A program made the translations under genes and the position numbers. DNA of 64,000 nt from the NCBI GenBank assembly GCA_038062675.1, contig JBBTWP010000001.1, positions 122,059 to 186,058 of the forward strand, read 5' to 3'. Each line of letters opens with the position of its first letter. The stretch's first letter is position 1. The notes under the pieces were generated by a model. The model did not search any database, was not told the origin of the DNA, and saw nothing but the letters and a program-made list of their open reading frames with translations. This DNA comes from Patescibacteria group bacterium (GTDB taxonomy: Bacteria; Patescibacteriota; Minisyncoccia; Phycocordibacterales; UBA1550). Positions 12,879-61,730 of the stretch are shown here, one piece after another.

Positions 12879-12884
12879 AATGAA

Positions 12885-37873: not shown

Positions 37874-37882
37874 CTAAAAATT

Positions 37883-39067: not shown

Positions 39068-39070
39068 AAT

Positions 39071-41491
39071 TTATTTGTATATTTTTGCTCCCCCGTTATT
39101 GTAAATAAGATTTTTATTATCGTCCAGAAATTGCATAGGATACATATAAGTTATTTGGTCTCCACCGTAGACTACTGTAGCCCTTTGTTTTCTGGTTGTT
39201 GCCTCACCCAAAAATACATATGCATCTTTTCGTACTACCGCGGGAAAAATTTCATTTGTTACATCTAAAGGGGTTAAAGATGTAATCTTTCTCTGAGAAT
39301 ACCTATCCGTTTGAATTTTAATCTTAACCCCATGAGTATCACTGTGAGGGATAGCGTCAAGCCATGTAACCCCCAACACCTCAGGAGCTTTAATGAGATA
39401 GTTGTCATAATATCTTCCCGTATTGTTCAAATGAAGCATTCCTGAAGTTTTACCGAAGATTTGGGGCAAAAATGACGTAGAATACATAAAAAACAATAAT
39501 GTTAAAATTACGGGGAATACGATATTTTCGTCGTTTTTTTGTGTTAGTATTGAGGTTACCTGTTTTTTAGATTTAAAACGAGATAATAATTTTTTAATCC
39601 AACTACCGATCCACAAGCTCGCAATCAGTATGGGAAGCGCTAATACAAACATAGATTGCTGCATGGCTCTATATATTCCGTATTCGGTAGAAAGAACAGG
39701 GATTACTAGGATCAAGAATATAAAGGTGAGAGCAGACACCGCTATTATATAAAATTCGCTATCAAGATATCTTACGGCAGACCTTCGCAACAAGAAATAC
39801 AAGAGCCCTAACGGTACCAAGACTTCCATGAGCTTTACAAGTATTCGTCCAAAAGCAGAGATTTTTGAAGTAATATTAAATCCTGATTTTTCTACAAAGT
39901 TGCCAAAATTGGTTAAAGGTATTCGCTCATCAGGTAAGGCAAGAAAGTTATATTTCGCATATGTCGATGCATCAAAATACACCCCCGGTGTCGCGGTATT
40001 TCTAATTGGGTTAAGAACTTTTTCAATGTAATCTTGCAGTTGTTCTTGCTGGCTTGGTTTTTTTAAACTGAATAAGTTTAAGGCATCAGTAGATCGATTG
40101 TTTTCATTAAACCCGTTTCCAATCGCAGATAGTGTCTTTTTTAAAACGGTGGTTATGCTTCCCCCTGTGTTGGTAACAACTGACGTCCACAGGAAACTCA
40201 CTAGCATCAGAATGACAATCATGGAAACCGTGATATTCGCTTTTTTCTCAGTCCCGCTGGTTGTAAGTGGAATATGCAGTGATGAATCCTTGAGTATGTT
40301 TGTTTTCTGATTAAAAAATTTAAACAACCAAATAAATATCGGTCTCAATACTATTGTCAATGCAAAAATTAAAAGTATAGTATACGTTGTTGAATAGTGG
40401 GAAAGTATCACTCCAATTCCCATTACAACAAACAATATTCTACGAACTTTAATATCCAGCTTTAATTCAAAGATGAGGTAAATCATCAACCCATAAAAAA
40501 GAAAGGCGATCTCCTGTCGAACAAGAAATGCCATATCCGCAAAAAAAGTTGGAAAGGACAAAAAATAAAATCCGGCAAGAAATGATATACGACGATCTGC
40601 CCAATGTCGGCTAATTAAATACGTAATTCCTGCGCAAAGTGCAAAGAATAACTGAAACAAAAATTTATAGATATACGGATCCGATACCTTTAGCAAATTG
40701 AAAAAAATGGTGGGAAGTATGGTAATGCTTAAGCATGCATTGTATGCATCACGATAAAAGTCCATATTCCAGAGACCAGCATTTTTTGTAAGTTCAAAAA
40801 CTTTATATTCTTGTTGTATGTCGTGCCCGGTAATATACCATCCGCGCAAACTTGTCATCAAGAGGAGTGATAAACTAATGAAAAAAAGTGCCGTTGGTAC
40901 CGTGTTTTCACCAATTTTTTTAGCATAAATATACAAGACTAGCGCAAAGACAGCTATTTCGCCCAACATCGCCAGTGTCCACAACCCAGTACCTCCATTA
41001 TTGAGACTTAGCGCCCCAATGATGCTTTGCACAACAAACAACATAGAGATTAGAGACAACCATGTATCCAACTTGGATGGAAAAAGCAAATAAAATATTT
41101 TACCGATGCTTACTTCCCAGTCAGGCAATTTTTTCCAAGCGACAAAAGATAGCGCAAATACTAAAATACTCATCTCCACAATAAGTACATTTTGAGCAAG
41201 TGGTTGAATAATGCCAAGCTTGGGAAGGAAGAAGTTTCCAATTAACACCATAACCATCAACTCTAAAAGACTAAAAGCCACACTTATCGATACATTCGCC
41301 CAAAAAGGAAGTTGTTTCAGCCTCAAAATGAGCAATGTGAGTACCCCAGGAACAAATGTTAAAAAAAGAAAGCCGACAATATTAAGTACCTGAAAATTGT
41401 TGAAATGCGCAAGAGAGAGCGCAATAAAAACCAGCCACCATAGAGCGACCCCTCCGATTAGAAAATTACGCTTTATTGTTAGTTCTTTCAT
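39071..41491 (-). CDS. large polytopic membrane protein (putative polymerase/GT-C-like)
   Basis: 806 aa with more than 14 predicted TM helices and a C-terminal soluble domain, inside the glycosyltransferase operon. Confidence 0.55.
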   Translation of the reverse strand: MKELTIKRNFLIGGVALWWLVFIALSLAHFNNFQVLNIVGFLFLTFVPGVLTLLILRLKQLPFWANVSISVAFSLLELMVMVLIGNFFLPKLGIIQPLAQNVLIVEMSILVFALSFVAWKKLPDWEVSIGKIFYLLFPSKLDTWLSLISMLFVVQSIIGALSLNNGGTGLWTLAMLGEIAVFALVLYIYAKKIGENTVPTALFFISLSLLLMTSLRGWYITGHDIQQEYKVFELTKNAGLWNMDFYRDAYNACLSITILPTIFFNLLKVSDPYIYKFLFQLFFALCAGITYLISRHWADRRISFLAGFYFLSFPTFFADMAFLVRQEIAFLFYGLMIYLIFELKLDIKVRRILFVVMGIGVILSHYSTTYTILLIFALTIVLRPIFIWLFKFFNQKTNILKDSSLHIPLTTSGTEKKANITVSMIVILMLVSFLWTSVVTNTGGSITTVLKKTLSAIGNGFNENNRSTDALNLFSLKKPSQQEQLQDYIEKVLNPIRNTATPGVYFDASTYAKYNFLALPDERIPLTNFGNFVEKSGFNITSKISAFGRILVKLMEVLVPLGLLYFLLRRSAVRYLDSEFYIIAVSALTFIFLILVIPVLSTEYGIYRAMQQSMFVLALPILIASLWIGSWIKKLLSRFKSKKQVTSILTQKNDENIVFPVILTLLFFMYSTSFLPQIFGKTSGMLHLNNTGRYYDNYLIKAPEVLGVTWLDAIPHSDTHGVKIKIQTDRYSQRKITSLTPLDVTNEIFPAVVRKDAYVFLGEATTRKQRATVVYGGDQITYMYPMQFLDDNKNLIYNNGGAKIYK

Positions 41492-42606
41492 AAAGATATG
41501 CTCCCATAAACTTCTTCAAGCTGGTCGATGAATCGCGACCACTTATATTGCTTGGCTTTTTCAGAACTTTTCTTCGATAGCGCAATCAATTTTTCTGGCG
41601 CACGCCAGAGTTGCTCAATCGTTCGAGCAAAATTTTCTGCGTATGGTTCGTTTACGAGCACCCCCGTGTCATTCAAAAGCTCCCTGACACCAGAAACATT
41701 TGTTCCCAAAATTGGCAATCCTCCCGCCATGGCTTCCAGTACGACAAGTGGAGTGCCGCCCTCTTTGTCGGAAGCTATGAGAAACGCATCGTGACTGCGA
41801 TGGTACTCCTGCATTTCTTTGTCATTTTTTCTTCCCTCAAATGAAACATTGGAAAGTTTTAGTTTTTTTACCAATGCTTCCAATTTTGAACGATCTTCAC
41901 CGTCGCCAACAATCGTCAAATGAGCTGGAATAGAAAGTTTTGATACTGCTTCTATGAGTCGCTCAACTCGCTTTTGTAGTGCAAGTCGCCCAACATACAG
42001 GAGACGGATTTGTTTTGTTGATGGAGCATAAACTTTGTTGGTGAAAAAATCTTCACTAACAGCATTTGCAATAACAACAATATTTTCTTTTTTAACTCCA
42101 AATTTGCGTTCCACTACCATTGCTTGATCCTGCGAACAAGCAATGACCCGACGTGCATTTCGAAGTACTGGTCCCCATACTATTTTTTTATATAATACAA
42201 ATATGGGTCCAAAAAAACCTGATGGTTCTACGTCAAGATGAAAATGTGCGATATAGGGAATGCGTCGCAACTTTGAGGCAAGTAAAACAAGTTCTGGCCA
42301 ATATGCATGCGCGAGGTGCAAATGAATAATGGAATTACGTGGCAACATAAGCAAATGCCATAATAGTGTTGGCGCGAAAGGAGTATGAGCAAACTCAAAA
42401 CTCCATAGAGCACTGACACAAAGATTATCTTTTGTCTCAGTCCCCCTCTGTATGCCACTGATGGCAGAAGTAAGCACGTGCACAAAATTCCCTTTTTTTG
42501 CCAACTCTTCTGCAGATATTTTTGCAACACGCTCCAATCCGCCAGTATGTGGGGGGTAATAGGCGGCAATGTGGGTTATCTGTGTTATTTTTTGTGTAGT
42601 TTTCAT
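41488..42606 (-). CDS. GT4 glycosyltransferase
   Basis: GGTPLVVLEAMAGGLPILGTNVSG. Confidence 0.8.
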   Translation of the reverse strand: MKTTQKITQITHIAAYYPPHTGGLERVAKISAEELAKKGNFVHVLTSAISGIQRGTETKDNLCVSALWSFEFAHTPFAPTLLWHLLMLPRNSIIHLHLAHAYWPELVLLASKLRRIPYIAHFHLDVEPSGFFGPIFVLYKKIVWGPVLRNARRVIACSQDQAMVVERKFGVKKENIVVIANAVSEDFFTNKVYAPSTKQIRLLYVGRLALQKRVERLIEAVSKLSIPAHLTIVGDGEDRSKLEALVKKLKLSNVSFEGRKNDKEMQEYHRSHDAFLIASDKEGGTPLVVLEAMAGGLPILGTNVSGVRELLNDTGVLVNEPYAENFARTIEQLWRAPEKLIALSKKSSEKAKQYKWSRFIDQLEEVYGSISL

Positions 42607-44894
42607 GGTAATAGTTCATTAAAAATTTTCGATATTTTTTTTGCTATCATACCCCAACCATATCTTTCCTCAATCAATTTGCGCCCACGAGCTCCCATTC
42701 TTCTCTGATCGTCTACATTTTCTAAAATTGCAATAATTACATCGGCTAGCTCCTTCGAGTTTGCCTTCGCTACCACCATACCTGTTTTATGTTGACTAAT
42801 CTCTGGAGCAACTCCAGCAACGTCCGTAGTGACGACAGGTATCCCACTTGCCATTGCTTCAAGTAAAACAATGCCAAATCCTTCAATTTCGATAGATGGA
42901 AGAACAAAGACGTTGGACCGTTGGTAGTATTGTATCAATTCTTCTTGCGTTTTTTTTCCGTGAAATTCAATCACATCTTCTACTCCCATTTTTTTAGATT
43001 CTTCTCGGTATTCATCAACAAGAGCGCCTTCTCCAACAACAATCAATTTTACATTTGGAATTTTTTCTTTTATTTTTGGTATTGCGTGAATTAGGTAATT
43101 AAAACCTTTAAAACGATGGTGTTCATCCAAGATAGAGACAAAAAGAATTGTAGGGTGCTTACTCTTGTTGGTTGATGGTTGAAACATTTCTGTATCAACG
43201 CCATTTGGTAGTGTGGTAATTTTTGACGAAAAACGTTCAAATATATTCCTTGTCTTTTTGAAAGCTGTTTTCCAGTGAGGATTAACTATAATAATTTTAT
43301 CTACAAAATACAAAGTGACCTGAAAGAAGGTATGAAGATAAATCCAAGTGATTATTTTACCAAATAAATCAGGTTTATCCATGTCATTGTGCACCGTCAA
43401 GATTGACCGTTTTCCTTTCAATTTTGCAACAAGAACAGTAATGTCAGATGTCCAAGGAGTTGGCATGTGCGTGTGAGCAATATCAAAATTAGTACGCCAC
43501 AGCACCCAAGGAAGACCTAGGGCGATATTCGTGTTTGCCACTTTAAAACTATAATTGAGCCGTTTTATTTTTGCTCCATTTACGATGCTTTCTTTCTCAA
43601 CAATAGGTTCATTTGCGCAAATGACTGTTACTTCGTGCCCAAGTTTTATAAGTTCTTTAGACAAATAGTACACGTGATTTTCTACTCCGCCGATGTATGG
43701 ATAAAAACGTATAGGAGTTTCCAATATCTTAATTTTATGTGATGTATGCCTATCTATCATTGACAAGAAAAACTCATGACAAACTTTCGCACGAATTCCC
43801 CAACTAAAATCTTTAGTAACTTTAATCACTCCTGCATTGCCAAAACTATGTGCGAGAGCGGGATTTGCTAATAATTCAGAAAGTTTTTGAGCGAGAGCTC
43901 TCCCATCGCAGGGTTCTACCAAAAACCCTGTTTCATTATCAGAAACAAGGTCGGGAACACTACCTACTTTAGTTGAAACAACTGGCAAACCTGACGCCAT
44001 AGCTTCCAAGATTGCCATACTAAAACTATCGTTTGATGTGGGGAGCGCAAAAATATGCGCTTGTTGATATTGTTCCGCAAGTTTTCCACCAAGCAGACGA
44101 CCGGTAAACATCACTACCTTCCCCAACCCAAGCTTTTGCACTCGCTCCTCATATTCACTTTTCATATTTCCGTCACCAACAACAGTAAGGCGTAAATCGG
44201 GAATATTTTTCTGTAGCTTAGCTACCACTTCAATAAGAGTTTGCAGACCTTTGTGCTGTTCCGCCTTGGCAAGTCCCGCAACAAACAAAATACTCGGGTA
44301 CTTTGTTTTTTTCTCGGAGACTGGCTTGAAAAGGTTGGTATCAACTGCAGGAGTAATAGTTACGCTTTTGTGTGCATATTTTTGTAAAAAAATAAGACGT
44401 ACAAAATCGGATGAACAAATAATCTGATCTGCGCGTTTCAAAAGCCATCGCATCGGTCCATGTTCATAAATCCATACCAAAATATCAAATAGAGTTTCCC
44501 CTTTGTGCATACTTCCTGTGTGATACGTGACAACAATAGGGGTCTTTTTTGCGAACATTGCCACAAGGTCGCCAATACCAGGCACTGGTGTGTGTATGTT
44601 TATAATATCAGGATTTTCCGTTTTCAAAATATGACGAATCTTTTTTGTCCACTTGAAACTAAATGGTGTGTTTGAGACTTTTAGTCCGTAAGAAAGTCGG
44701 TACATGGTCAGTCCTTCCACCTCCTCTTTAGCATCTGCGCCATGTCGTTCTCCAGAAGTAACCACTACCACATTCCATTGGTATTCGCGAGAAAGCCGAT
44801 GAGAGATCTCATACGCATAGCGTTCCAGCCCGCCACCATAAGGCGGGAAATATGGAGCAACAACAAGCACTGTTTTCTTTAGTGAGTTACTCAT
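42603..44894 (-). CDS. fused double GT4 glycosyltransferase
   Basis: Two complete GT4 units (FSMAILEAMASGLPVVSTKVG and EGFGIVLLEAMASGIPVVTTDVAG), 763 aa. Confidence 0.8.
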   Translation of the reverse strand: MSNSLKKTVLVVAPYFPPYGGGLERYAYEISHRLSREYQWNVVVVTSGERHGADAKEEVEGLTMYRLSYGLKVSNTPFSFKWTKKIRHILKTENPDIINIHTPVPGIGDLVAMFAKKTPIVVTYHTGSMHKGETLFDILVWIYEHGPMRWLLKRADQIICSSDFVRLIFLQKYAHKSVTITPAVDTNLFKPVSEKKTKYPSILFVAGLAKAEQHKGLQTLIEVVAKLQKNIPDLRLTVVGDGNMKSEYEERVQKLGLGKVVMFTGRLLGGKLAEQYQQAHIFALPTSNDSFSMAILEAMASGLPVVSTKVGSVPDLVSDNETGFLVEPCDGRALAQKLSELLANPALAHSFGNAGVIKVTKDFSWGIRAKVCHEFFLSMIDRHTSHKIKILETPIRFYPYIGGVENHVYYLSKELIKLGHEVTVICANEPIVEKESIVNGAKIKRLNYSFKVANTNIALGLPWVLWRTNFDIAHTHMPTPWTSDITVLVAKLKGKRSILTVHNDMDKPDLFGKIITWIYLHTFFQVTLYFVDKIIIVNPHWKTAFKKTRNIFERFSSKITTLPNGVDTEMFQPSTNKSKHPTILFVSILDEHHRFKGFNYLIHAIPKIKEKIPNVKLIVVGEGALVDEYREESKKMGVEDVIEFHGKKTQEELIQYYQRSNVFVLPSIEIEGFGIVLLEAMASGIPVVTTDVAGVAPEISQHKTGMVVAKANSKELADVIIAILENVDDQRRMGARGRKLIEERYGWGMIAKKISKIFNELLP

Positions 44895-45595
44895 ACAAGT
44901 TTTCCATTAGTGAGATATTCTACACCGGCTTTATTGGCAATATGTTGAAACACACGTTCTAAGCGATTCCAATCTTTTAGTTTTTCAATTTCCCAACTAT
45001 GTCCCCAAATATGAAAAACTCCTCCGTTTTCAGAGACACGCTCAAACATAGCAATGGCAAGATTATCCCAATGGCGATAGTATTGGAAAAATTTAAATGG
45101 ATTGAATCGCACAAAGAGTGCAATCTGCCATGCATCCAGCCAGTGGTCGTAAGTGTGTATGCTGGTCGGCATTTCGTAGAGGTCTTTTATAAAACCAAAA
45201 GAGAATCTGCGCACAGTGCGCGCGAGGACAAACCCTGCTTCCCGTACCACTTGCTTCTGCTTCAAAAGGTATTTTCCGCTCGGGTAACAGAAACTTTTCA
45301 CAGAACCACCCGTCCACTTTTCAAGAAGCTTTTTTGAATCAGAAATTTCGCGCTCAATTTGTTCATCAGTTAACAAGCGCATATCGGGATGCGTCATGGT
45401 GTGTGCGCCTATCTCAAAATCTTTTGACAAGGCCAGGACTTGCACTTGAGAAAGTCTATCTTGAGGGAGAATTTCGTGGCATTCAGGAGCAATATAAAAA
45501 GTGCCCTTGAGATTGTACTTTTTAAGAAGTTGCGCAAGTTTTAGGTCGAGCACGTGTCCATCATCCCAACTGGTTGTTACGATTACTTTTTTCAT
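44891..45595 (-). CDS. polysaccharide deacetylase (NodB-like)
   Basis: TSWDDG...GTFYI and HTMTHP motifs. Confidence 0.6.
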   Translation of the reverse strand: MKKVIVTTSWDDGHVLDLKLAQLLKKYNLKGTFYIAPECHEILPQDRLSQVQVLALSKDFEIGAHTMTHPDMRLLTDEQIEREISDSKKLLEKWTGGSVKSFCYPSGKYLLKQKQVVREAGFVLARTVRRFSFGFIKDLYEMPTSIHTYDHWLDAWQIALFVRFNPFKFFQYYRHWDNLAIAMFERVSENGGVFHIWGHSWEIEKLKDWNRLERVFQHIANKAGVEYLTNGKLV

Positions 45596-45599
45596 AATA

Positions 45600-46730
45600 T
45601 TATTCTAACGCACGTTTATAATTCTGCGCCACGCTTGCCCAATCATACTCCCCAATCCCCTGTTTTGGGTTTAAGGTGTCTATGGTTTTGAATATTTGCA
45701 GGATTTTTTCAGCGACACTTTCTGAGTTTAGTTCTGCAAGCAAACCATTTACTCCCTCGTGTATTAGGTCTTTTGCAGCGTTTCGTTCATGATTGATAGT
45801 CAAGACGGGAAGCCCGCACGCGTTTGCCTCAATCACGATAATACCAAATCCTTCCCGAGTTGAAGGCAATACTAAAATTTTTGAGGATTTCATAAGTCCA
45901 TAGAGTTCGCTTGGATCTTGCAAAAAGCCAAAAAATGAAACATTATTTTCAAGCTCTAGTTCATGGGTAAGTTTCTGAAGTTTTTCTTTTTCTGGTCCCT
46001 CCCCTACCACAAAAAGCGACAAGTTTATATTTTTTTGCACCAGAATCCCTACTGCACGAATCAAAACATCTACATTTTTATTTTGTAACAATCTTCCTGC
46101 AAATATTATATCAGATGCACGAGATGAGGGCGCGCTGTTTTGTATTGCATCAATATCCACCCCATTTGGTACAGTAACAACATTTTTACTTCTTCCAAGA
46201 GTCTCGCGAAGTCCAATCGTGGTGTGGTTTGAAACTGAAATGATAACATCAGGGAGCGTTACTGTTATTTTTTCAACCCAATAACCAACTAGTCCTAATT
46301 TTCCCAAATATTCTCTCCAATACTCTTTTCCCCATACTTCATGCCATGTAGTATACAGGGGTTTTCGTTTTACCCAAGTTACCAAACGGCATGAAAAAAG
46401 TGAGAAATAAGGAAAACCACAACAATCAATGATGTCGAACTTTTCAGACCATAATTTAAGGCAGTTAACACCAAACCATACCGCTTGAAGCATAGAACGG
46501 CGCCCTGAGTCTGTATAAAGTGGCATCGCCTTGCATATGCCATGCAACGTCATCCCCTCAAATTTCATGATTGTGGGACCGTCCCAACACTTCATCCCAT
46601 ACAGGTGTACATCATGTCCTTCTTTTGCAAGCCGTCGACCAATTTCATAAAATCGCTTTTCTGCGCCCCCCTTAATAAAGGGAAAGACCGCATCATAAAC
46701 TAAAGCAATTTTTTTAGATTGGACTGACAT
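45600..46730 (-). CDS. GT4 glycosyltransferase
   Basis: EGFGIIVIEANACGLPVLTINHERNAA. Confidence 0.8.
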   Translation of the reverse strand: MSVQSKKIALVYDAVFPFIKGGAEKRFYEIGRRLAKEGHDVHLYGMKCWDGPTIMKFEGMTLHGICKAMPLYTDSGRRSMLQAVWFGVNCLKLWSEKFDIIDCCGFPYFSLFSCRLVTWVKRKPLYTTWHEVWGKEYWREYLGKLGLVGYWVEKITVTLPDVIISVSNHTTIGLRETLGRSKNVVTVPNGVDIDAIQNSAPSSRASDIIFAGRLLQNKNVDVLIRAVGILVQKNINLSLFVVGEGPEKEKLQKLTHELELENNVSFFGFLQDPSELYGLMKSSKILVLPSTREGFGIIVIEANACGLPVLTINHERNAAKDLIHEGVNGLLAELNSESVAEKILQIFKTIDTLNPKQGIGEYDWASVAQNYKRALE

Positions 46731-46755
46731 GATTCATGAGGGCAAACCGACAGAG

Positions 46756-47457
46756 CTACTGAGTGAGTGTTCCCCTTCGCAAGACAACTCGCTTCATAAA
46801 AAGCTGTGACATATTGCGCACACCATCCCTTACTGTGTTGAGCTTCACTTCGCCAACACGTGGGCGGTATTCGATTGGTGTTTCAGCACATTTGAATCCC
46901 TTTGCATAAGCCTCCACCTTCAATTCCTGAGAAAATGGCATTCCTCCCGATACTACGTCAAGATGCTCCCAGATTGAACGCTTGAAAATCCACATGCCTG
47001 ATTGTGAATCTTTAAACGGCCACCGAAAAAGTGTACGGGTTGTCATACTCAACAACCAATTACCAAAAACATGACTGAAGGTCATTGCTTCAGGATTAAG
47101 ATTGCTCAAGCGGTCAGTGTTAAGAAAATCTAAATTTTTCTCACGGAGCGTCGTGAGAAGTTCTGGTAATGAATCAAATGGGTACGTCATGTCAGCATCC
47201 CCCGTTGCAATAATGTCACCAGTAGCAGCGGCAAAGCCAGCTTTGTAAGCATTTCCATATCCACGCAAAGGTGCGGGAACCACTCTCGCTCCGTGGGCAG
47301 TAGCGATTTCCGCTGTTTTGTCGGTCGAACCATTATCGGCAACAATGATCTCGACCTCGTAGCCCATACTGTTCAATTTTGCAACAGGGACTTGTTTGAT
47401 AACGTCTGCTACCCCCCCTTCCTCGTTTAATGCTGGTATAACAACTGATAATTTCAT
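46756..47457 (-). CDS. GT2 glycosyltransferase (DPM1/GtrB-like)
   Basis: LSVVIPALNEE...VADNGSTD...GDADMTYP. Confidence 0.8.
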   Translation of the reverse strand: MKLSVVIPALNEEGGVADVIKQVPVAKLNSMGYEVEIIVADNGSTDKTAEIATAHGARVVPAPLRGYGNAYKAGFAAATGDIIATGDADMTYPFDSLPELLTTLREKNLDFLNTDRLSNLNPEAMTFSHVFGNWLLSMTTRTLFRWPFKDSQSGMWIFKRSIWEHLDVVSGGMPFSQELKVEAYAKGFKCAETPIEYRPRVGEVKLNTVRDGVRNMSQLFMKRVVLRRGTLTQ

Positions 47458-47946: not shown

Positions 47947-48230
47947 CTATCTATATATCATATTTTTGCCCAAAAAGCAAGGGCTGGCATGGGGAAAACT
48001 TTGAGAATAGGCACGAAATGCTGGATTTTGTTGGAAAGTCGGTGGTGCAGGGGTGTCATGGTGCCGGAATACAACTTATTGACTTCGCAAAGGGTTTGCA
48101 CTGTATGCCCGATTATGATAAAATGCAAATAGGAGTATGCAATAATAACTTACGTGGTGCTCTGGTGTTCCCACAGAGGATCTGTGACTTAAGCTAGAGA
48201 CTGACACTGCGTGAGACCGCTACTTCTAAC

Positions 48231-48265: not shown

Positions 48266-48910
48266 CTACTTGAAGAATTCTTTGGTACTAAGAATGTTAT
48301 TTTGAATAATTTTATAGCATTCTTCCCCGAGTGGTTTTTTCTCAAGATACCAAGCAAGTGCACCAGAAACCCAATCTGCAATTTGAATATTAGCATTTGC
48401 AGTAGAATCGATCATCTGAATATCAACAAACGTTCCAGGTGAGCAAACAGGGAGAAGCTGGGCTTTCACTGATTCCCTAAAACTATTCCTTGTAAGTCCT
48501 TTAAGGTGTCTATTGTCACAAAAAATATAGAATTCTTTTTCATCTGTTGGTAAATATGTTTTTATAATTTCTGCAATGATTGCCGCGTAGAGCAATCCGC
48601 TTTCCAGCTTGCCTGCATTGTTTCTAAAGTCACTCGGAATGTTTTCCCGTTGTAGATACCCATAACGAATCCTTACATCAAGCTCTGCGATATGCTTAAG
48701 TGTCCGCAATCGTAATGAGTCATCCACGCTCGTAGATGACCACTTTATCTCATTCTGTGTTCGCATTTTTCTTGGAAATCTAGACTGACGCCAAGATTTG
48801 AATGCTTTCTCTGTGCGCCTTTGGTCACCCACAGTGAATGAACCTATTACAAAATATTCTTCATTGTTATGTTTGGTGAATTGACCGCTTTCGTCTAAAA
48901 ATATATACAT
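48266..48910 (-). CDS. DUF3800 family protein
   Basis: MYIFLDESGQF N-terminus and IQIADWVSGAL C-terminal motif. Confidence 0.55.
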   Translation of the reverse strand: MYIFLDESGQFTKHNNEEYFVIGSFTVGDQRRTEKAFKSWRQSRFPRKMRTQNEIKWSSTSVDDSLRLRTLKHIAELDVRIRYGYLQRENIPSDFRNNAGKLESGLLYAAIIAEIIKTYLPTDEKEFYIFCDNRHLKGLTRNSFRESVKAQLLPVCSPGTFVDIQMIDSTANANIQIADWVSGALAWYLEKKPLGEECYKIIQNNILSTKEFFK

Positions 48911-52614: not shown

Positions 52615-55260
52615 CTATTTTCGTTTGAGGACTTTTTTGAGGTATTTGCCAGTGTAGGAAGCGGGGTTGGCAGCGATTTGTTCAGGGGTACCACGGGCAA
52701 CAATATCTCCCCCACCCTTGCCACCTTCGGGTCCAATATCAAGCACGTAGTCGGCGCTCTTGATAACATCCATGTTGTGTTCAATGAGAAGCACGCTATT
52801 GCCTTTGTCGACGAGTTTGGACAAAATCTCGATGAGCTTGCGCACGTCTTCATAGTGAAGTCCTACGGTAGGTTCATCGAGGAGGTACATGGTGCGTTCG
52901 ACATGGGGACGGTACAACTCAGAAGAAATTTTTACACGTTGTGCTTCCCCGCCAGAGAGTGTGGTTGCAGATTGCCCCAGCTTGAGGTAATGCAGACCCA
53001 CTTCATTCAAAGTTTTCAATCGGTCGTAGATTGCAGGAATGTCCTCAAAAAATGCGAGCGCCTCTTCGACGGTCATCTCGAGTACGTCGTAAATATTTTT
53101 CTTTTTGTAGACAATTTCAAGCGTGTCTTTTTCAAAACGTTTACCCCGACATACGTCGCAGGTTACATACACCGTTGGAAGAAAGTGCATCTCGACGGCA
53201 ATAGTACCGTTGCCTTGGCAAGTCTCACAACGCCCACCTTTTACGTTGAACGAAAAACGGCCCGGTCCCCACCCGCGCAAACGTGCTTCGGCAGTCTCGG
53301 CAAAAATGTCACGAATGAACGTAAACGAGCCGGTGTAGGTCGCTGGGTTTGAACGTGGTGTGCGGCCGATGGGCGACTGGTCGATGAGAACCGTGCGTGA
53401 GAGATACTCGGTGCCGGTGAAGCTCTCACAGTTGAAAATGTCGTTGGTGCGATAGCGATGCTCGAGGCGTGCTTGGAGGTTCTTGTAAATGATTTCGTAC
53501 ATGAGTGTACTTTTTCCCGAGCCTGATACGCCAGTGATGGCAACAAGTTTCCCTAGAGGGATTTCTGCGTTTAGATGTTTGATATTGAATGCAACGCCCT
53601 CTTTGATGCGTAAGTGTCCACGGTCTTCGTCACGGCGTTTCTTGGGAATTTCCACTGCTTTGTCGCCACGTAAATAGTCGAGGGTGAGGGATTTGTATTT
53701 TTTTGGATTGGTGATGAGCTCGTCCAAGTATCCAACGGCAACAACATTGCCCCCGTGCACGCCGGCGCCGGGTCCAATGTCTACAAGGTAGTCTGAGGCA
53801 AAAATAGTGTCTTCGTCGTGCTCGACAATAATAATGGTGTTGCCAAGGTCGCGGAGGTCTTTGAGGGTTTTGATAAGGCGGTCATTGTCGCGTTGATGGA
53901 GGCCGATGGTAGGCTCGTCGAGAACATAAAGTGCTCCCACAAGGCGTGAACCGAGCTGAGACGCAAGGCGAATACGCTGTGCCTCGCCACCCGAGAGTGT
54001 GTTGGCACGGCGGTCGAGAGTGAGGTAGTCGATACCCACGTCGAGCATGAATGACAAACGATTTTGGATTTCTTTCACAACCGGAAGTGAGATGTCCTTG
54101 TCGCGCGGAGAGATTTTGAGTTCGGCAAAAAACTCCGATGCCTGCGCAATCGACATGCGGGAAATATCTACAATGTTCTTGCCGTGTACATACACACTCA
54201 TTGCCTCTTTGCGGAGGCGTGCACCCTCACAGTCGGGACATGGTTCGCTCCCAAAAAAATGTTTACTGCCGAGCCCATTGCAGGCAGGGCATGCACCGTA
54301 GGGCGAGTTGAACGAGAAAAGGCGTGGCTCGATTTCAGGGTAAGAAAAGCCGTCGTTGGGGCAGGCAAAGCGGTTGGACATAATGAAGTCCTTGGTCTCG
54401 ACACCGTCTTTCATGAACACAATGCGCACCAAACTTTCAGATTCGAGGAGTGCGCGCTCAAGGCCCTCCGAGAGGCGTTCACGTCCTTTTGTTTGTGGCG
54501 CCTCGTCTTCGGCAACATCTTTACTCGCAGGAATATTTTTGTCGCGCCCAACGGACTTGCGCGACACGATTCCGCTGAATCGAAAATCCGCAATATTGAT
54601 TTCATCTACCAAAACATCAATCTCATGTTTCTTCGTTTTAGAGAGAACGATTTGTTCACGCAAGTTTTTAATTTCACCGTCGACGCGCACCATGAGATAC
54701 CCTTTGCCGAGGAGGTCGTAGAGGAGCTGGTAGTACTCCCCCTTTCGTCCGCGCACGAGTGGTGCAAAAATACGCACGGTTGTTGCACTCTTTCCTTCGC
54801 CGTTTTTGATCTCTGACAAAATGAAATTCAGAATTTCTTCGTTGCCGAGACGTTTTATTTCTTCACCACACAAGAGACAGTGGGGTTTGCCGATACGCGC
54901 AAACATGACGCGGAGATAGTCGTAGATTTCGGTAATAGTCGCAACCGTTGAGCGCGGATTGGACGAGTGTGATTTTTGGTCGATTGAAATGGCAGGCGAA
55001 AGCCCCGTGATTTCATCCACGTCCGGCTTTTGCATCTGGTTTAGGAATTGACGTGCGTACGCTGAAAGTGACTCAACGTAGCGACGTTGACCCTCGGCAA
55101 AAATGGTGTCGAAGGCAAGCGAAGACTTCCCTGAGCCCGAGAGCCCCGTAAAGACCACCATCTTGTCGCGCGGCATTTCCACACTGATGTTCTTTAGGTT
55201 GTGGGTGCGCGCTCCGCGTACAGTGATGGTGTCGATTCCCTTTTTCTTTGGATTGGTCAT
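52615..55260 (-). CDS. uvrA: excinuclease ABC subunit A
   Basis: Two ABC ATPase modules ([22 protein letters not shown]) and zinc-finger Cys clusters, 881 aa. Confidence 0.9.
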
Positions 55261-55763: not shown

Positions 55764-56483
55764 ATGCGAAGCAAAAAAAGCTTGTGGTGGTTTACCATTA
55801 GTCTTATTGTTCTTTGGGTCACAAATGTCCAAGCCAAAGAATCCACCTGTTCACTCGGTCTTGGTGCTGGATATGTAAAAATATCAACGTCAGTCCTCAA
55901 ACTCACCAACCTTGAAAAGAAATTGGCAAAGAGTGATGATGTGAACTATTCACGGAGTGTCGACAACGAAAGCACGGCGCATGAGTTGTCGATCGACTGT
56001 CTGCTTGGCAACAACTTTGGTATACGGGGATCGTATATCGATGGACTGGAATTTTCAGCGACCAACACCATCACTTCCCCAAAGTTTTTTCTTGAATCAC
56101 CAATCGATGAGATTGACGGAATTACAATCCAATCACTCAAAGCGAAAGTCACAAGAAAAATTAGCGGATCCGCGACCGGAGTGTTTGTTTACTATCGTTT
56201 CGATGTCGTTCCTTCGTTTGCTACAGTTTCTGTGGAAGGAGGTTCGTACTATGTTCGAGCCGAAAGTTACTGGAAAGCGAGTCTGGAAAATGTTGATGGT
56301 GAAAAATATTTCACACTCTTGGGTGAAACTGAATATCAACGAGAATATTTCCCCAGCATTGCATTTAGTGGAAACTTAAATTTCACACCGAGTATGGGGC
56401 TATCCGCACACTATATGCCAGTGCCGGGAAAAACAACGAGGATGCTCTTTTTGACTTTCACGTGGAGATTGTGGAGATTGTGA
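55764..56483 (+). CDS. secreted beta-barrel-like protein (OMP_b-brl-like)
   Basis: Signal peptide, LGLGAGYVK start of beta-strand alternation, aromatic-rich C-terminus. Confidence 0.45.
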   Translation: MRSKKSLWWFTISLIVLWVTNVQAKESTCSLGLGAGYVKISTSVLKLTNLEKKLAKSDDVNYSRSVDNESTAHELSIDCLLGNNFGIRGSYIDGLEFSATNTITSPKFFLESPIDEIDGITIQSLKAKVTRKISGSATGVFVYYRFDVVPSFATVSVEGGSYYVRAESYWKASLENVDGEKYFTLLGETEYQREYFPSIAFSGNLNFTPSMGLSAHYMPVPGKTTRMLFLTFTWRLWRL

Positions 56484-56530: not shown

Positions 56531-57058
56531 TTATAACGTCTCCCCTTGTTTTTTATCGCGTAGATCAATCGCCTTTTTCATGAAGTATGGCATCATCAAG
56601 GATAATCCCATCACTACAACAACCATGGTAGAAAAAATGCCGAATGACATTGGTGGAGGGGTATCTCCTAAAGGCATAGGTAGGACACCTAGAATAAGTA
56701 AGATGATATTTATAAATACAAAAATAATTATTGCCAAAAAAGCAACCACGGTAAGCGGTATGTCGAGGCAAATAAAATATTTTATATATTCTCGGAATGA
56801 CATTTTCTTCCACGCGAGCATCGCTGGCGCTAAGAAATATACAGCAATTGAAACAAGGGACAATGTCGCATATGCCGTATCGCCTCCTGAAAACGCAAAC
56901 ATCTCAGAAGAATCCGTAACTAAATCTGTATAGGTCATGTACACACCTAGCAGAGCAGAGAGCACAAAGATAACAGCGTACACAATAAATGAAGTATTCC
57001 CCACTTCCCCGCGCACAACCGCCCGCACCATTTCCATTGGATTGATCAATCTTTTCAT
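56531..57058 (-). CDS. polytopic membrane protein (Yip1-like?)
   Basis: 175 aa with 4-5 TM helices. Confidence 0.35.
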   Translation of the reverse strand: MKRLINPMEMVRAVVRGEVGNTSFIVYAVIFVLSALLGVYMTYTDLVTDSSEMFAFSGGDTAYATLSLVSIAVYFLAPAMLAWKKMSFREYIKYFICLDIPLTVVAFLAIIIFVFINIILLILGVLPMPLGDTPPPMSFGIFSTMVVVVMGLSLMMPYFMKKAIDLRDKKQGETL

Positions 57059-57095
57059 CTGGATAATTTTAATAAAATTTAATTTTAATAATTTT

Positions 57096-57623
57096 CTAAC
57101 TCTCCCGAGGTGAGACCTCGGGAGCTCTGAAATGTTTTAAGACATAAAGATATTTGAAAGTGTAAAATGTGGAAATAGAGCAAAAAACAAGTAAAAGTGA
57201 TGCAAAAAATATTTTGTATATGGTTGACAATATTAAAAATAATTCTTCTTGCCCTAAAACAGTCAAGATTGGAAGGAAAGGAAATGGAATCCAATAAACA
57301 ATTTGATATATAAAAATTAATCCAAAAAACAATTCAATAAAGGTAACTATATTCTTGTTCATAGTAAAATAAAAATTAAACGCATATAAAACTGGTGCTG
57401 TAATCAGAAATAAAAAAATTACAATAAATGCCGTAAAATCAAAAGACCATTGTAGGGGAATTGCCACAAGGAAAAGAACCGTGGACAAAAATAGCAAGTT
57501 TGCAATAGAAAATATTTTTAGAAAAGACGTATTTTTAAATAGATTCATATTTTTAAATCCTAGTACTAATTTTAATATAAAAATTGGCAGGAGACAAGCT
57601 CCTGCCAAAAAGTTAACCACCAA
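57096..57623 (-). CDS. polytopic membrane protein
   Basis: 175 aa with 5-6 TM helices. Overlaps the upstream gene by 11 nt. Confidence 0.35.
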   Translation of the reverse strand: MVVNFLAGACLLPIFILKLVLGFKNMNLFKNTSFLKIFSIANLLFLSTVLFLVAIPLQWSFDFTAFIVIFLFLITAPVLYAFNFYFTMNKNIVTFIELFFGLIFIYQIVYWIPFPFLPILTVLGQEELFLILSTIYKIFFASLLLVFCSISTFYTFKYLYVLKHFRAPEVSPRES

Positions 57624-57954
57624 AAACTGCTACCCATAATCCTGCGGCAGTAACCAGGCTGTTTGGCCAACCTGGACTACTCAGTATTCTAACTACAAGA
57701 GAGGAAACCGGAATGCCGTAAAGAACTGCCGCTGCATACAATACTGGCAAAAACTCCCCCCGCATTTCCCCCGCCATTTCATCCGACATCGGAAGACCGA
57801 TTTTCTCGATTTCGGCGATGGGATTGCTGGCAAGCTCGGTGTTGATGGTGCTTGCGGAAGCAATGGTGGGGACAATTGTCGCGGACAACAGGAACGCGAC
57901 AGCTAAAAACAGTGGTGCAGTAATCTTTCGAACACTCTTCATGCTGACCTCCAA
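57613..57954 (-). CDS. small secreted hydrophobic two-helix protein
   Basis: Signal peptide ...TIVPTIASA, then two hydrophobic helices and a C-terminal GG. Confidence 0.35.
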   Translation of the reverse strand: MEVSMKSVRKITAPLFLAVAFLLSATIVPTIASASTINTELASNPIAEIEKIGLPMSDEMAGEMRGEFLPVLYAAAVLYGIPVSSLVVRILSSPGWPNSLVTAAGLWVAVFGG

Positions 57955-58043
57955 GGTCGTTTGTTGTAATACAAAGAACTACTAGCAACTACGAATCTAT
58001 AGTTACTTGAAGAGTATACACGGAGCAGGTCTCAAAATCAATA

Positions 58044-58120
58044 TTGACAGGGGGGGGTAAAGTAAGGTATGATGGCGGAAGTCTTATGAACCACATCTGT
58101 GGTTCATTTTTGCTCTTTGT
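58044..58120 (+). promoter_or_regulatory. promoter (TTGACA-18-TATGAT) plus a leader hairpin with U-tract (candidate attenuator)
   Basis: TTGACA 58044-58049, TATGAT 58068-58073. ATGAACCACA-tct-GTGGTTCAT at 58086-58107, then TTTTGCTCTTTG, about 20 nt before the ATG at 58139. Confidence 0.45.
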
Positions 58121-58138
58121 TAATCAAAAGGAAAAAAC

Positions 58139-58969
58139 ATGAAAGCAATGTTTGTGGCAATGGGTATGTTGTTTGCGGTGAATTTTGCGTATGCGGAGGA
58201 AGTGGCGAAAGAGGGCGAGGCCGAAGGCCTCGCCCTCGAACAAAAACTTGCTCGTGTGTATGACCTCTATCGTAGAGAAGCCACCGTGTCACTCAAGCCG
58301 AGCGAGATGCAAGCGGGGGTGGGAGTCGTGTACACAACCGGAACTCAAGAAACATTTGGGCTACGGCAAAGTGTGCGTGCGCTTACCACGCAAGTATTTG
58401 CAAGTCGTGGGGTTGGGCATGGGATGGAAATTTCAGTCGCACTCCCCTACTCTGCAACTTCGCGAAGAGTGGAAACGTCAGAGGCAACACTCGCAAAGAG
58501 TTCAGCGTTTGGTGGTGGAGACACAACCATACGCCTGTTGGGTACGCTTCCCACAAAAGAAGTCAGCACAACAGCAATACTTTCTGCAACCCTTCCCACG
58601 GGAAAACATGAGCTCTCACACAACGAGGCACACACTTCTCTGGGAGCAAGCTGGAGTAAAGTTCTACGTCCAGCATTTGTTTCTGGGGGCGCTTCATGGG
58701 AACGAGACTGGCAGAGTGATGTAAATGGTCTGGGCTACAATCTCGGTATGGGATTCTTTCTCAACCACGCACTGTCACTTGGTGGAGAAATAGCGGGTGT
58801 CCTCGTGCTTAATCCTGAAATGGGGGCAGTGCAAGACACGCAAAGCATGGGGCTCAAAGTTGCGTACCAAACCACACCAGATTTTGGTGTGGTGGTATCT
58901 ACTAACATTGGCATAGGAACCAGTGCACCACAATCATCTCTTGGTATGACAACCTATTGGAGGTTTTGA
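58139..58969 (+). CDS. secreted beta-barrel-like protein with OMP-type C-terminus
   Basis: Signal peptide MKAMFVAMGMLFAVNFAYA. Amphipathic beta-strand pattern, C-terminal ...TTYWRF ending in Phe. Confidence 0.5.
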   Translation: MKAMFVAMGMLFAVNFAYAEEVAKEGEAEGLALEQKLARVYDLYRREATVSLKPSEMQAGVGVVYTTGTQETFGLRQSVRALTTQVFASRGVGHGMEISVALPYSATSRRVETSEATLAKSSAFGGGDTTIRLLGTLPTKEVSTTAILSATLPTGKHELSHNEAHTSLGASWSKVLRPAFVSGGASWERDWQSDVNGLGYNLGMGFFLNHALSLGGEIAGVLVLNPEMGAVQDTQSMGLKVAYQTTPDFGVVVSTNIGIGTSAPQSSLGMTTYWRF

Positions 58970-59628
58970 TGAAGAATACTTTGCCACACGTTTTGCTTTT
59001 TGTGTTTTCTTTTCTTTTTTCCATACCCACATACGCGTCTTCGGACGAACCGTGGACATGGGACGAGGTACGCTTCGGCGGCATTGTAGAGCAAGGGCTC
59101 GACAATTCATGTGGAATCGCATCGCTCCTCACCATTATGCGCATGCATTTTGGTGATGAACGATATGATGAAGCATCGCTTCTTAAAAAGTACATGGAAA
59201 CTGCAAGTGAGGAATCAATTGCAGAGTCTATGAAAAATGGCTTTTCACTACTTGAGATGGAGAAGTTCAGCACATCGCTAGGGTACACCACCTCAAAGAA
59301 AATACTGTCCTTTGAGGAACTGGAGCGATTGGTGGCATTTGTGCCTGTCCTTGTTTACCTTGAGGTTGGGAAATTTCGACATTTTGCGGTTGTGAGAGGG
59401 ATACAAAAAGACGTTGTCCTTTTGGGTGACCCATCACGAGGAAATGTGGAATACACACGCGAAGAGTTTTTATCCGAATGGGGAAAACTCAAAGGGGTAT
59501 CTCAAGAAAAAGGTGCGGGGCTTATGTTGGTACGAAGTGGCGTGATACCAACACAAACACTTTTAACCGGGCCGAGCACAGAAGAACCTTCCTCTTTTGT
59601 CGAAATGCAAAGGCAGTTGGTAAGATGA
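58969..59628 (+). CDS. secreted stand-alone C39-like cysteine peptidase
   Basis: EQGLDNSCGIASLLTIMRMHFG (Gln-x5-Cys-Gly) and RHFAVVRGIQKDVVLLGDP (His...Asp-Pro) catalytic motifs. Own signal peptide. SD GGAGG. TGATG stop/start overlap with the upstream gene. Confidence 0.6.
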   Translation: MKNTLPHVLLFVFSFLFSIPTYASSDEPWTWDEVRFGGIVEQGLDNSCGIASLLTIMRMHFGDERYDEASLLKKYMETASEESIAESMKNGFSLLEMEKFSTSLGYTTSKKILSFEELERLVAFVPVLVYLEVGKFRHFAVVRGIQKDVVLLGDPSRGNVEYTREEFLSEWGKLKGVSQEKGAGLMLVRSGVIPTQTLLTGPSTEEPSSFVEMQRQLVR

Positions 59629-59693
59629 GCAAACATTAAATCCTTACGGAAAACCAAAAGCGGATCAGGAAAACTTGATCCGCTTTTTATTTT

Positions 59694-61730
59694 TTATTCC
59701 CCTGCTTCGTTGCGTGCTTTGAGTGCAGCGATTTCGTCGCGGATGATGGCGGCGGTTTCAAAGTCGAGTTCTTTGACGGCGCGGTTCATTTCTTTTTCTT
59801 TAAGCTTGAGGAGTTTTGCAAAATCTTTTCCAAAGACTTGTCCGTCGACGTCGAGGTTGAACTTCACCGCTTTCATGTGTGCGGTTTCGAGATGTTCGGT
59901 GATGTCTTTGATACTCTTGATGATGGTCTTAGGTGTAATGCCGTGTTCTTTGTTGTATGCGACTTGAATGGCGCGACGACGATTGGTTTCGCCAACAGCG
60001 CGCTCGATGGAGCCCGTGATAACATCGGCATAGAGAATTACGCGCCCTAGCACATTGCGAGCTGCGCGCCCAATGGTCTGGATGAGTGCTGTTTCAGAGC
60101 GCAAAAATCCCTCTTTGTCGGCGTCGAGGATGCCAATGAGCGCAACTTCAGGAAGATCGAGTCCTTCGCGGAGCAGGTTCACGCCAACAATACAATCAAA
60201 CGTACCCTTGCGAAACTCGGTGAGTATCTGAATCCGTTCGATGGTCTTGATGTCACTGTGAAGGTACTCAGCTTTTACACCTTCCCCTTTTAAATATTCT
60301 GACAAATCTTCTGCCATTTTTTTGGTGAGGGTGGTGGCAATGACGCGGTGACCACCTGCGACCACTTTCTTTGTCTCGGCGATGAAATCTTGGATTTGCC
60401 CGCCATAGCTACCTTTCTCGCCAATTGGTCGTAAAATAATTTCGGGGTCGATGAGGCCCGTGGGGCGAATGATTTGCTCCACTACTTGCTTGCTCGTCTC
60501 GCGCTCGTGAGTTGCAGGAGTTGCGGAGGTGTAAATGACTTGCCCGACGCGTTCATTGAACTCTTCGAAGCGAAGAGGACGGTTGTCTTGGGCGCTTGGC
60601 AGACGAAAACCGAATTCGACGAGGGTTTTTTTGCGTGACTGGTCACCGGCATACATGCCACCAATTTGCGGAATGGTCACGTGCGATTCGTCGATGATGG
60701 TGAGAAAGTCGGGCTTGCCGTCTTTGGTGCGAGGGAAATATGAAAGGAGTGTGTCTGGGGGTGAACCAGCCGCGCGCCCTGACATGTGGCGTGAATAGTT
60801 TTCGATACCATTGCAATACCCCATCTCGCGAATCATAGCGAGGTCGTAGGTAGTGCGGCGTTTGATGCGCTCGGCTTCGAGGAGTTTACCCTCCTTTTCA
60901 AATTTTTTAAGTTGTGTGGCAAGTTCGGCTTTGATGACTTTGAGTGCCTTGGTCTTTGCCGCTTCGTTGGTGATGAAGTGTTTTGCAGGGAAGATGAAAA
61001 TGGCGGGTTCGGTTCCCACAATTTTTTGTGAGACGGGGTCAACTTTTTGGATGGATGCAATCCCCTGCATGTCGAGCGTAAGACTCCAAATCATTTTTTC
61101 TGAGACGGGCATGATTTCAAGCAGTGAGCCAATAGAGCGAAAGGTTCCCGGAGTGAGGTCGGCGTTGGTGCGCTCAAAGTGAATGGCGATGAGTTTTTTC
61201 ATGAGCTCTTTGCGATCCATTTTTTGTCCAACGGCAAGTTTCAAATTTTCTTTTTCATATTCCGCTGGCGAACCGAGACCGTAGATACAGGACACCGATG
61301 CAACAATAATCACGTCGCGACGCGTCAGGAGTGCCTGTGTCGAGGCATGGCGGAGGCGGTCAATTTCTTCGTTGATCTGAGCGTCTTTCTCAATGTACGT
61401 GTCGGTGACCGGCATGTACGCCTCTGGCTGATAATAGTCATAGTACGACACAAAGTAGTGCACTGCGTTGTTGGGGAAAAATTCTTTGTACTCTTGCGCA
61501 AGCTGTGCGGCGAGAGTTTTGTTGTGTGCGATAACGAGTGTCGGCTTCCCTATTTCCGCAATAACGTTTGCGGCGGTGAATGTTTTCCCGGAGCCAGTCA
61601 CACCCAAAAGCGTCTGGCGGTCAAAGCCTTTTTTGAGTCCAGAAACGAGCTTTTTGATCGCTTCGGGCTGGTCGCCAGCGGGAGGCCAGTCGGATGTGAG
61701 GTTAAATGTGGACATTGGTTGTGTTGACAA
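59694..61730 (-). CDS. uvrB: excinuclease ABC subunit B
   Basis: GVTGSGKTFT Walker A, helicase motifs, C-terminal UVR domain (AAIIRDEIAALK). Confidence 0.9.
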   Translation of the reverse strand: MSTQPMSTFNLTSDWPPAGDQPEAIKKLVSGLKKGFDRQTLLGVTGSGKTFTAANVIAEIGKPTLVIAHNKTLAAQLAQEYKEFFPNNAVHYFVSYYDYYQPEAYMPVTDTYIEKDAQINEEIDRLRHASTQALLTRRDVIIVASVSCIYGLGSPAEYEKENLKLAVGQKMDRKELMKKLIAIHFERTNADLTPGTFRSIGSLLEIMPVSEKMIWSLTLDMQGIASIQKVDPVSQKIVGTEPAIFIFPAKHFITNEAAKTKALKVIKAELATQLKKFEKEGKLLEAERIKRRTTYDLAMIREMGYCNGIENYSRHMSGRAAGSPPDTLLSYFPRTKDGKPDFLTIIDESHVTIPQIGGMYAGDQSRKKTLVEFGFRLPSAQDNRPLRFEEFNERVGQVIYTSATPATHERETSKQVVEQIIRPTGLIDPEIILRPIGEKGSYGGQIQDFIAETKKVVAGGHRVIATTLTKKMAEDLSEYLKGEGVKAEYLHSDIKTIERIQILTEFRKGTFDCIVGVNLLREGLDLPEVALIGILDADKEGFLRSETALIQTIGRAARNVLGRVILYADVITGSIERAVGETNRRRAIQVAYNKEHGITPKTIIKSIKDITEHLETAHMKAVKFNLDVDGQVFGKDFAKLLKLKEKEMNRAVKELDFETAAIIRDEIAALKARNEAGE

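Follow-up and report, generated by a model that had tools for sequence, protein, structure and literature searches.

The 64,000-nucleotide stretch analyzed here (hereafter the window; positions 122,059 to 186,058 of the forward strand of contig JBBTWP010000001.1, assembly GCA_038062675.1) comes from a metagenome-assembled genome (MAG) listed at NCBI as 'Patescibacteria group bacterium' and carries six genes between uvrA and uvrB (both on the minus strand, at 52615-55260 and 59694-61730, respectively). Our analysis suggests that this locus probably encodes a Sec-dependent, leader-guided module of the Fap/Nap type for the maturation and export of bacteriocin-like peptides, accompanied by immunity-like membrane proteins. 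The parts on which this reading turns are a stand-alone C39 peptidase, a FapF-like beta-barrel protein encoded next to it, and a divergently encoded precursor peptide (Table 1). Related loci were gathered by exact look-up and by scanning GTDB genomes as well as metagenomes, the locus search using a 30-sequence alignment of the close C39 family. Fifteen of them are of the candidate phyla radiation (CPR) type and retain the flank needed to compare gene order (the locus in the window, L006, L008, L012, L014-L017, L020, L021, L023, L027, L028, L030 and L063); an additional, incomplete copy lies at a contig end (L013).

The C39 open reading frame (ORF) begins with a signal-like segment (MKNTLPHVLLFVFSFLFSIPTYAS) and contains the motifs Q42-x5-C48-G-x-A, H138-F-A-V-V and G-D154-P. 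Residues 40-172 match Pfam Peptidase_C39 (PF03412) at E 1.8e-17, with a score of 63.8 bits (cut-off 22). The AlphaFold2 model, built from an alignment of 46 homologues with a predicted local distance difference test score (pLDDT) of 87.5, has as its top Foldseek matches in the PDB the peptidase domains of PCAT1, ComA and LahT150, and its His/Asp segment aligns with the catalytic region of PCAT1 and ComA. Q42, C48, H138 and D154 are invariant in the 46 homologues; the modeled protein combines a papain-like fold with the catalytic Cys, His and Asp and with an oxyanion Gln six residues before the Cys. At 219 aa the ORF has no ABC-transporter part of the kind that is fused to the peptidase in PCAT-type proteins. 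By sequence and model, the product is an extracytoplasmic stand-alone C39 peptidase. The best NCBIfam match is C39_FapD (NF058616; 75.6 bits, below the equivalog cut-off of 330), the second is FilB (61.5 bits, below the cut-off of 475), and the ABC-fused bacteriocin exporters rank after both (TIGR01193, 24.6 bits against 523.85). Judged by these scores, the protein is not a FapD orthologue, though FapD is the best-scoring family. All CPR-type C39 peptidases end in a conserved tail, LL..P....P.SF.E..RQ, which falls outside the FapD profile match. Also, in a subset of them (for example, P0031, P0034, P0039 and P0044) a lipobox-like L-x-x-C replaces the signal-peptidase-I site, which suggests that these homologues are membrane-anchored versions.

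The protein encoded directly upstream has a signal peptide that ends in AYA and the C terminus TTYWRF. Its gene is joined to that of the peptidase by a one-base overlap, in which the A of the C39 start ATG is shared with the TGA stop of the barrel ORF (TGATG), and a GGAGG Shine-Dalgarno sequence lies 6 nt 5' of this ATG, inside the 3' end of the barrel ORF. In the AlphaFold model (28 sequences, pLDDT 75.7) a helix at residues 28-45 is followed by a closed beta-sheet, and Foldseek matches the model to FapF (5o67_B, E 2.3e-12, TM 0.72). The modeled protein thus shows the FapF fold of a 12-strand barrel with an N-terminal plug helix (PDB 5o65), its own helix being a putative barrel plug. This helix, in which Q35, K36, L37, L43 and Y44 are invariant, ranks with the C-terminal Y-W-R-F among the best-conserved stretches of the protein. 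The barrel in the window has no match to the NCBIfam FapF model (NF058560; equivalog cut-off 700 bits) at E<=1, and the barrel profile has zero matches among PDB sequences. The same profile finds larger barrels beside C39 genes in non-CPR loci, and these match NCBIfam FapF at E 1e-20 to 1e-25 and also FilC; among the CPR barrels, those of L017 and L008 match FapF/FilC at about 1e-7 (L008 FilC, E 1.3e-7), and the FapF scores of the barrel relatives range from 20 to 87 bits. It is therefore the structure match, together with these transitive NCBIfam matches, that ties the barrel in the window to FapF. The first-pass annotation, made from the letters and ORF translations of the window, had described a C39 peptidase with its own signal peptide and no ABC fusion, coupled through TGATG to a secreted 276-aa protein with a barrel-like C terminus, and our results bear out this description, coordinates and all listed motifs included.

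The divergent gene encodes a precursor made up of a signal peptide, an acidic leader and a hydrophobic core. A homologous signal-peptide-plus-leader peptide is found, with a leader hidden Markov model and a regular expression, in 15/15 CPR-type loci with upstream flank. Classical double-glycine leaders, such as those of ComA- and LahT-type substrates, have Gly at position -2 and a hydrophobic register at -4/-7/-12/-15. The CPR leaders keep this register except at position -1, where Glu stands in place of the Gly, Ala or Ser of a canonical Gly-Gly, Gly-Ala or Gly-Ser pair: Gly(-2) and Arg(-3) each occur in 19/19 CPR-type leaders and Glu(-1) in 18/19, while -4 is V/L/M/I, -7 is A/L, -12 is M/L/I and -15 is mostly L. 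The resulting consensus is [ML]-[PS]-D-E-x-A-x-E-[LMV]-R-G-E. Gly(-2) is found in 30/30 leaders when 11 non-CPR leaders are counted as well, a part of the count that is partly circular since those leaders were selected with a motif-based filter. Signal-peptide-bearing peptides, ending in V-[RKEQ]-G-[GKNAEL], are also encoded in proteobacterial loci, namely L018 (Pseudomonadales), L019 (Arenicellales) and several metagenome contigs. The leader in the window is not N-terminal, as a leader for ABC export would be, and no ABC transporter is encoded among the genes of the locus; the Sec signal peptide ahead of the leader accounts for how the precursor would cross the inner membrane. From its sequence, the 109-aa peptide is a probable substrate of the C39 peptidase, a role that had been proposed for this small hydrophobic protein before and that is now supported by the double-glycine-type leader, which had been overlooked.

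Unlike the leaders, the core sequences are hypervariable. The precursors of the window and of L062, for instance, have nearly identical leaders and unrelated cores, and the CPR cores as a whole range from transmembrane-like to amphipathic. In L063, three precursors share one common leader, carry three different cores and are each followed by a gene for a 67-75-aa membrane protein; by analogy, this pairing is the classic bacteriocin-immunity layout. Hypervariable cores behind a fixed leader point, at the level of sequence, to a bacteriocin-like or host-directed toxin role over a structural role.

The gene set itself is conserved. In 15/15 CPR-type loci with flank the barrel gene lies directly 5' of the C39 gene, with the precursor gene divergent from it, and the one-base overlap is present at the junctions that were checked. 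The close family occurs in MAGs labeled Paceibacterota, Saccharibacteria and Parcubacteria, the labels being those of the MAG submitters, and is restricted to Patescibacteria MAGs. Barrels of this family are rare: among 1.84 billion cluster representatives, 13 reach E<=1e-30, a number that rises to 34 at a limit of 1e-10 and to 151 at 1e-3. A phage origin was considered and rejected, as neither barrel nor C39 relatives are present in IMG/VR viral contigs. One Candidatus Parcubacteria MAG contains two paralogous FapF-like barrels, P0144 and P0145 (RLZZ230_221 and RLZZ230_857), so that a genome can hold more than one module. On the flanks of the L063 module (9778-14502 of a 525-kb CPR-like contig) lie transposase/integrase genes (Y1_Tnp, rve) as well as a diversity-generating retroelement with bAvd, RVT_1 and two Lcl_C target-type genes, and in L064 a C39 gene shortened to 104 aa lies next to transposases.

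The membrane proteins encoded behind the precursor differ in their conservation. The 175-aa protein has about four hydrophobic segments and an N-terminal RLINPxEMVRA motif, and jackhmmer finds its homologues adjoining the module in seven loci (the window, L006, L008, L014, L015, L020 and L023), with a further homologue in L062. This co-conservation fits an immunity or accessory role, for which the protein is a candidate on sequence grounds. The 150-aa protein was rejected as a conserved module partner: jackhmmer finds zero homologues in the other loci, which hold different small membrane-protein genes at its position. Of the two proteins that the first-pass annotation proposed as immunity or export partners, only the former is co-conserved with the module. 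Homologues of the 175-aa protein also occur as tandem-duplicated fusions, in L014 (1540-2595, 351 aa) and L062 (2639-3559, 306 aa). The sixth gene, ORF239, is lineage-specific, with 4 relatives among 5.8 billion clusters; as a candidate second barrel or module core it was rejected, since hhalign finds nothing against the barrel family and the gene is missing from other module loci. In L062 a homologue of ORF239 again adjoins genes of the 175-aa type and a precursor gene. ORF239 and the two membrane proteins have no Pfam, NCBIfam or PADLOC family, and the PADLOC defense models give zero matches for the six proteins of the locus.

Folds, catalytic residues, gene coupling and the conservation of leader and module are supported directly by the data above; for cleavage, export route, toxicity and immunity, we infer the following sequence of events. 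The 109-aa precursor would be exported by Sec and lose its signal peptide. The secreted C39 peptidase would then recognize the acidic leader and cut after ...RGE, as the conserved register and the habits of C39 domains suggest; the 33-aa leader would in effect be an extracytoplasmic version of the double-glycine leader, with Glu replacing Gly at -1. Cleavage would set free a 46-aa hydrophobic, mildly cationic and presumably membrane-active peptide, for which the coupled FapF-like barrel could serve as the exit or hand-over channel, as proposed for FapF and NapF in diderms. The 175-aa membrane protein, and in related loci the variable small membrane proteins encoded behind the precursor genes, may protect the producer.

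The pairing of a free C39 peptidase with a barrel, which the first-pass annotation held to be undescribed, has precedents. Pseudomonas has the periplasmic C39 peptidase FapD, which is exported by Sec and whose active-site Cys is needed for the secretion of FapC through the plugged barrel FapF (PMC5557850). The nap island of Neisseria encodes the Gly-Gly peptides NapABC, the free C39 peptidase NapP, the FapF homologue NapF and the immunity-like NapI, as well as NapH and NapR (PMC11798529). In addition, NCBIfam curates models for a C39 peptidase, FilB, and a barrel, FilC, of an Acinetobacter pilus system. The earlier suggestion of a peptide-maturation/export or toxin-immunity module fits the substrate and the one co-conserved membrane protein; what does not hold is that this kind of system is uncharacterized, although the subfamily lies far below the FapD and FapF cut-offs. 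Since a free C39 peptidase with a barrel is a secretion-module type known from Fap, Nap and Fil, the oddity that is left is the conservation of such a module in Patescibacteria.

The module shares with Fap a Sec-exported stand-alone C39 peptidase with FapD as its best NCBIfam match, an adjacent barrel with FapF as its best structural match and an N-terminal helix, and, as we read it, proteolysis coupled to the secretion of Sec-delivered substrates. It differs in that the six neighboring proteins include no FapA/B/C/E or amyloid repeat proteins (Pfam/NCBIfam); in the size of the barrel, which has 276 aa against about 400 or more in FapF and lacks the long N-terminal coiled-coil/linker region, only about 10 residues preceding the helix in the mature protein; in its substrate, a short leader-bearing precursor without repeats; and in its host. 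The likeness to nap, compared by described parts, is one of component types: small helical peptides of the Gly-Gly type, a free C39 peptidase, an immunity-like membrane protein and a channel resembling FapF, four classes that are present and co-conserved across the module loci. Unlike in nap, the precursors carry a Sec signal peptide before the leader and would have Glu rather than Gly at P1, barrel and peptidase are translationally coupled, and no NapR or NapH counterparts were recognized. The matches to FilB and FilC link the module to Fil as well, but the scores are far under the cut-offs (475 and 630), a FilA/D/E/F-like gene is lacking, and the products are hypervariable short peptides and not a pilin. 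Class II bacteriocins and microcins, with exporters such as PCAT1, ComA and LahT, resemble the module in peptidase fold, catalytic residues and leader register and in having an acidic leader, a cationic hydrophobic core and adjacent immunity-like membrane-protein genes; here, in contrast, the peptidase is free of an ABC transporter and would act outside the cytoplasm, a Sec signal peptide precedes the leader, and the predicted P1 residue is Glu (Lys/Asn/Ala in proteobacterial relatives) and not Gly. Thus, the module differs from the known Fap/Nap/Fil kind in its minimal barrel, in its combination of Sec signal and Gly-Glu leader, in its hypervariable cores and in a host that has been proposed to be without an outer membrane.

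Several points weigh against a bacteriocin-like export module. C39 enzymes take Gly, Ala or Ser at P1; Glu is unusual there, and the scissile bond may lie elsewhere. Since the hydrophobicity of the first 24 core residues would suffice for a stop-transfer anchor, the core peptide might stay in the membrane of the producer instead of being released. A crude shuffle test of the alternating hydrophobicity of the barrel strands was not significant, as 242/2000 shuffles reached the observed value, and the plug helix is modeled with low confidence (pLDDT ~53). Furthermore, Patescibacteria have been proposed to be monoderm, without an outer membrane (PMC12102498), and no outer-membrane biogenesis family (BamA/Lpt/Lpx/Tol) is found among the called genes in ~85 kb around the locus, so that an outer-membrane exit channel has no obvious place. 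The conservation of an outer-membrane-type barrel family in several Patescibacteria classes fits poorly with a monoderm envelope, and a literature search for beta-barrel or outer-membrane proteins in Saccharibacteria or Patescibacteria found nothing relevant among the papers searched. It is possible, if doubtful, that some Patescibacteria, from the Paceibacteria, Parcubacteria and Saccharibacteria lineages, have retained a genuine FapF-like barrel of the outer-membrane type with a conserved C-terminal aromatic signal, either by way of a hidden outer compartment or assembly route or with the barrel exported and placed in the membrane of a host or target cell, where it would form a pore that delivers the C39-processed hydrophobic peptides. 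The module could also belong to a Gram-negative organism and have been misplaced by assembly or binning, given that the taxonomic labels are those of the submitters and that the examined surroundings span ~85 kb. We consider such an artefact highly improbable, however, because the locus, with uvrA and uvrB on either side, is part of a ~265-kb contig that was recovered in several independent assemblies, its GC content matches that of neighboring genes, the surrounding genes look CPR-like with none of outer-membrane type, and related loci are carried by long contigs in other CPR MAGs (labeled Paceibacterota, Saccharibacteria and Parcubacteria) and by the 525-kb contig.

The biological role assigned to the peptides may also be wrong. 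By analogy with nap, which has the same parts list, 'bacteriocin' may be a misnomer, because the Nap peptides were found to promote autolysis, with no killing of competitors (PMC11798529). The peptides could then be self-directed, acting on the producer population in programmed autolysis or as pheromones and not as weapons; this appears quite unlikely, given that extreme core diversity behind a fixed leader and the precursor/membrane-protein pairs of L063 are more typical of antagonistic toxins and that the module has no conserved regulator or sensor gene. A role in fiber biogenesis, in which C39-activated peptides are secreted via the barrel as subunits of a surface filament or matrix, would agree with the closest curated families, FapD/FapF (amyloid) and FilB/FilC (putative pilus system), with the detection of the pilus subunit FilA in Acinetobacter Tol 5 (PMC11784438) and with the N/Q/G/I-rich, repeat-like and amyloid-like appearance of the Arenicellales L019 peptides. 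We nevertheless regard it as unlikely, since structural subunits are usually conserved whereas the CPR cores vary even among close relatives, since the locus has neither the Fap subunit-type genes nor repeat proteins, and since the pairing of precursor and small membrane protein in L063 suits toxin and immunity better. As for the barrel alone, it has a marginal match to Pfam Phenol_MetA_deg (PF13557, COG4313; 22.6 bits against a gathering cut-off of 22), and many members of the family carry a precomputed PF13557 match. These matches would suit an uptake channel for hydrophobic compounds that is a mere neighbor of the peptidase and has no joint function with it, but FapF is a better match to the barrel than the COG4313 channels (PDB 4rl8) and the barrel gene is paired with one for a peptidase instead of catabolic genes, which makes this reading very unlikely. 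In the Arenicellales locus (L019; 3621-4444 and 7154-7881), genes for four peptides with a signal peptide and a Gly-Gly leader surround those for a C39 peptidase and a FapF-like barrel of 452 aa; from its sequence, this locus may be an uncharacterized Fap-like fiber system.

The module has implications beyond this locus. The CPR loci are unusually clear about the substrates of such modules, with Sec-exported precursors, a conserved Gly-X leader and the double-glycine register. The substrate of FapD is still unknown (PMC5557850), as is its recognition sequence, and the CPR leader therefore offers a testable motif for the whole periplasmic C39 class; its consensus would be the first explicit recognition motif for peptidases of the FapD/NapP class. 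The location of the barrel bears on the architecture of the CPR cell envelope and on attack or communication between episymbiont and host, and a barrel inserted in the membrane of a host or target cell would be an episymbiont attack device. Also, candidate membrane-active peptides of an uncultured lineage can be drawn from the hypervariable cores.

The gene starts and the intergenic signals refine the layout of the locus. The precursor gene most likely starts at ATG 57942 (109 aa, with GGAGG upstream) and not at TTG 57954, and the second membrane ORF most likely starts at ATG 57548, as the gene callers have it, and not at TTG 57623; the 175-aa version of this ORF, which runs from the latter codon, is probably an over-extension. 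The precursor gene and two polytopic ORFs do follow one another on the minus strand, as the first-pass annotation had it, but they are not the tight operon with two 175-aa proteins that it described: the second ORF has 150 aa, and the arrangement is not seamless because a hairpin and T-run (57608-57584) separate this ORF from the precursor gene. The hairpin is a possible partial terminator that would uncouple expression of the precursor from that of the membrane proteins. Between the divergent genes, promoter-like sites are found on the plus strand (TTGACA-18-TATGAT, 58044-58073, 11/12 consensus matches) and on the minus strand (TTGATT-17-TATACT, 58041-58013), and the hairpin ahead of the barrel gene may, by its sequence, be an attenuator.

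Table 1. Features of the peptide module locus and its surroundings (coordinates in the window)
Feature	Position	Strand	Basis or remarks
Secreted orphan protein, 239 aa (ORF239)	55764-56483	+	Signal peptide, C-terminal end ...FTWRLWRL
Conserved polytopic membrane protein, 175 aa; candidate immunity/accessory	56531-57058	-	jackhmmer homologues beside related modules
Lineage-specific polytopic membrane protein, 150 aa	57096-57548	-	Gene callers; no homologue in other loci
G+C-rich hairpin and T-run	57584-57608	-	Directly 3' of precursor stop codon; 10-pair stem, 6 G-C pairs, then TTTTTATATT
Precursor peptide gene, 109 aa	57613-57942	-	Signal peptide, leader and core
Hydrophobic core, 46 aa	57616-57753	-	FLPVLY...VAVFGG; grand average of hydropathicity (GRAVY) 1.31, isoelectric point (pI) 8.6
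Acidic leader, 33 aa	57754-57852	-	STINTELASNPIAEIEKIGLPMSDEMAGEMRGE, pI 4.2, ends ...MSDEMAGEMRGE
Sec-type signal peptide, 30 aa	57853-57942	-	Ends ...TIASA
Divergent promoter-like sites	58013-58073	both	Consensus matches only; 184-bp intergenic region
Terminator-like hairpin (9 pairs) and T-run	58086-58107	+	5' leader of barrel/C39 transcript, between promoter-like site and barrel start codon
FapF-like beta-barrel protein, 276 aa	58139-58969	+	Divergent from peptide gene
Stand-alone extracytoplasmic C39 (double-glycine-type) cysteine peptidase, 219 aa; FapD/NapP/FilB-like	58969-59628	+	Pfam/NCBIfam, fold
Bidirectional terminator-like hairpin	59656-59687	both	C39/uvrB convergent gap; 14-pair stem on +, 12-pair on -

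The MAG was recovered from Hainich groundwater, the ~265-kb contig coming from the 0.1-um filter fraction; its coverage is 23 in this fraction against 6 in the 0.2-um fraction, a comparison that is suggestive only. Genes near the locus include those for peptidoglycan synthesis, many glycosyltransferases and DUF2206. In particular, a large glycosyltransferase/polysaccharide cluster at 36995-47457 contains, besides several glycosyltransferases of the GT4 and GT2 families, genes for a polysaccharide deacetylase and for a DUF2206 membrane protein of 806 aa, along with a flippase-like gene; clusters of this kind are typical of CPR surface-glycan loci. The window also holds an Rfam DUF3800-V RNA motif (48131-48227, plus strand; 72.3 bits against a gathering cut-off of 37.4), which lies at the 3' side of a DUF3800 gene on the opposite strand (48266-48910, minus strand) and not in its usual upstream position.

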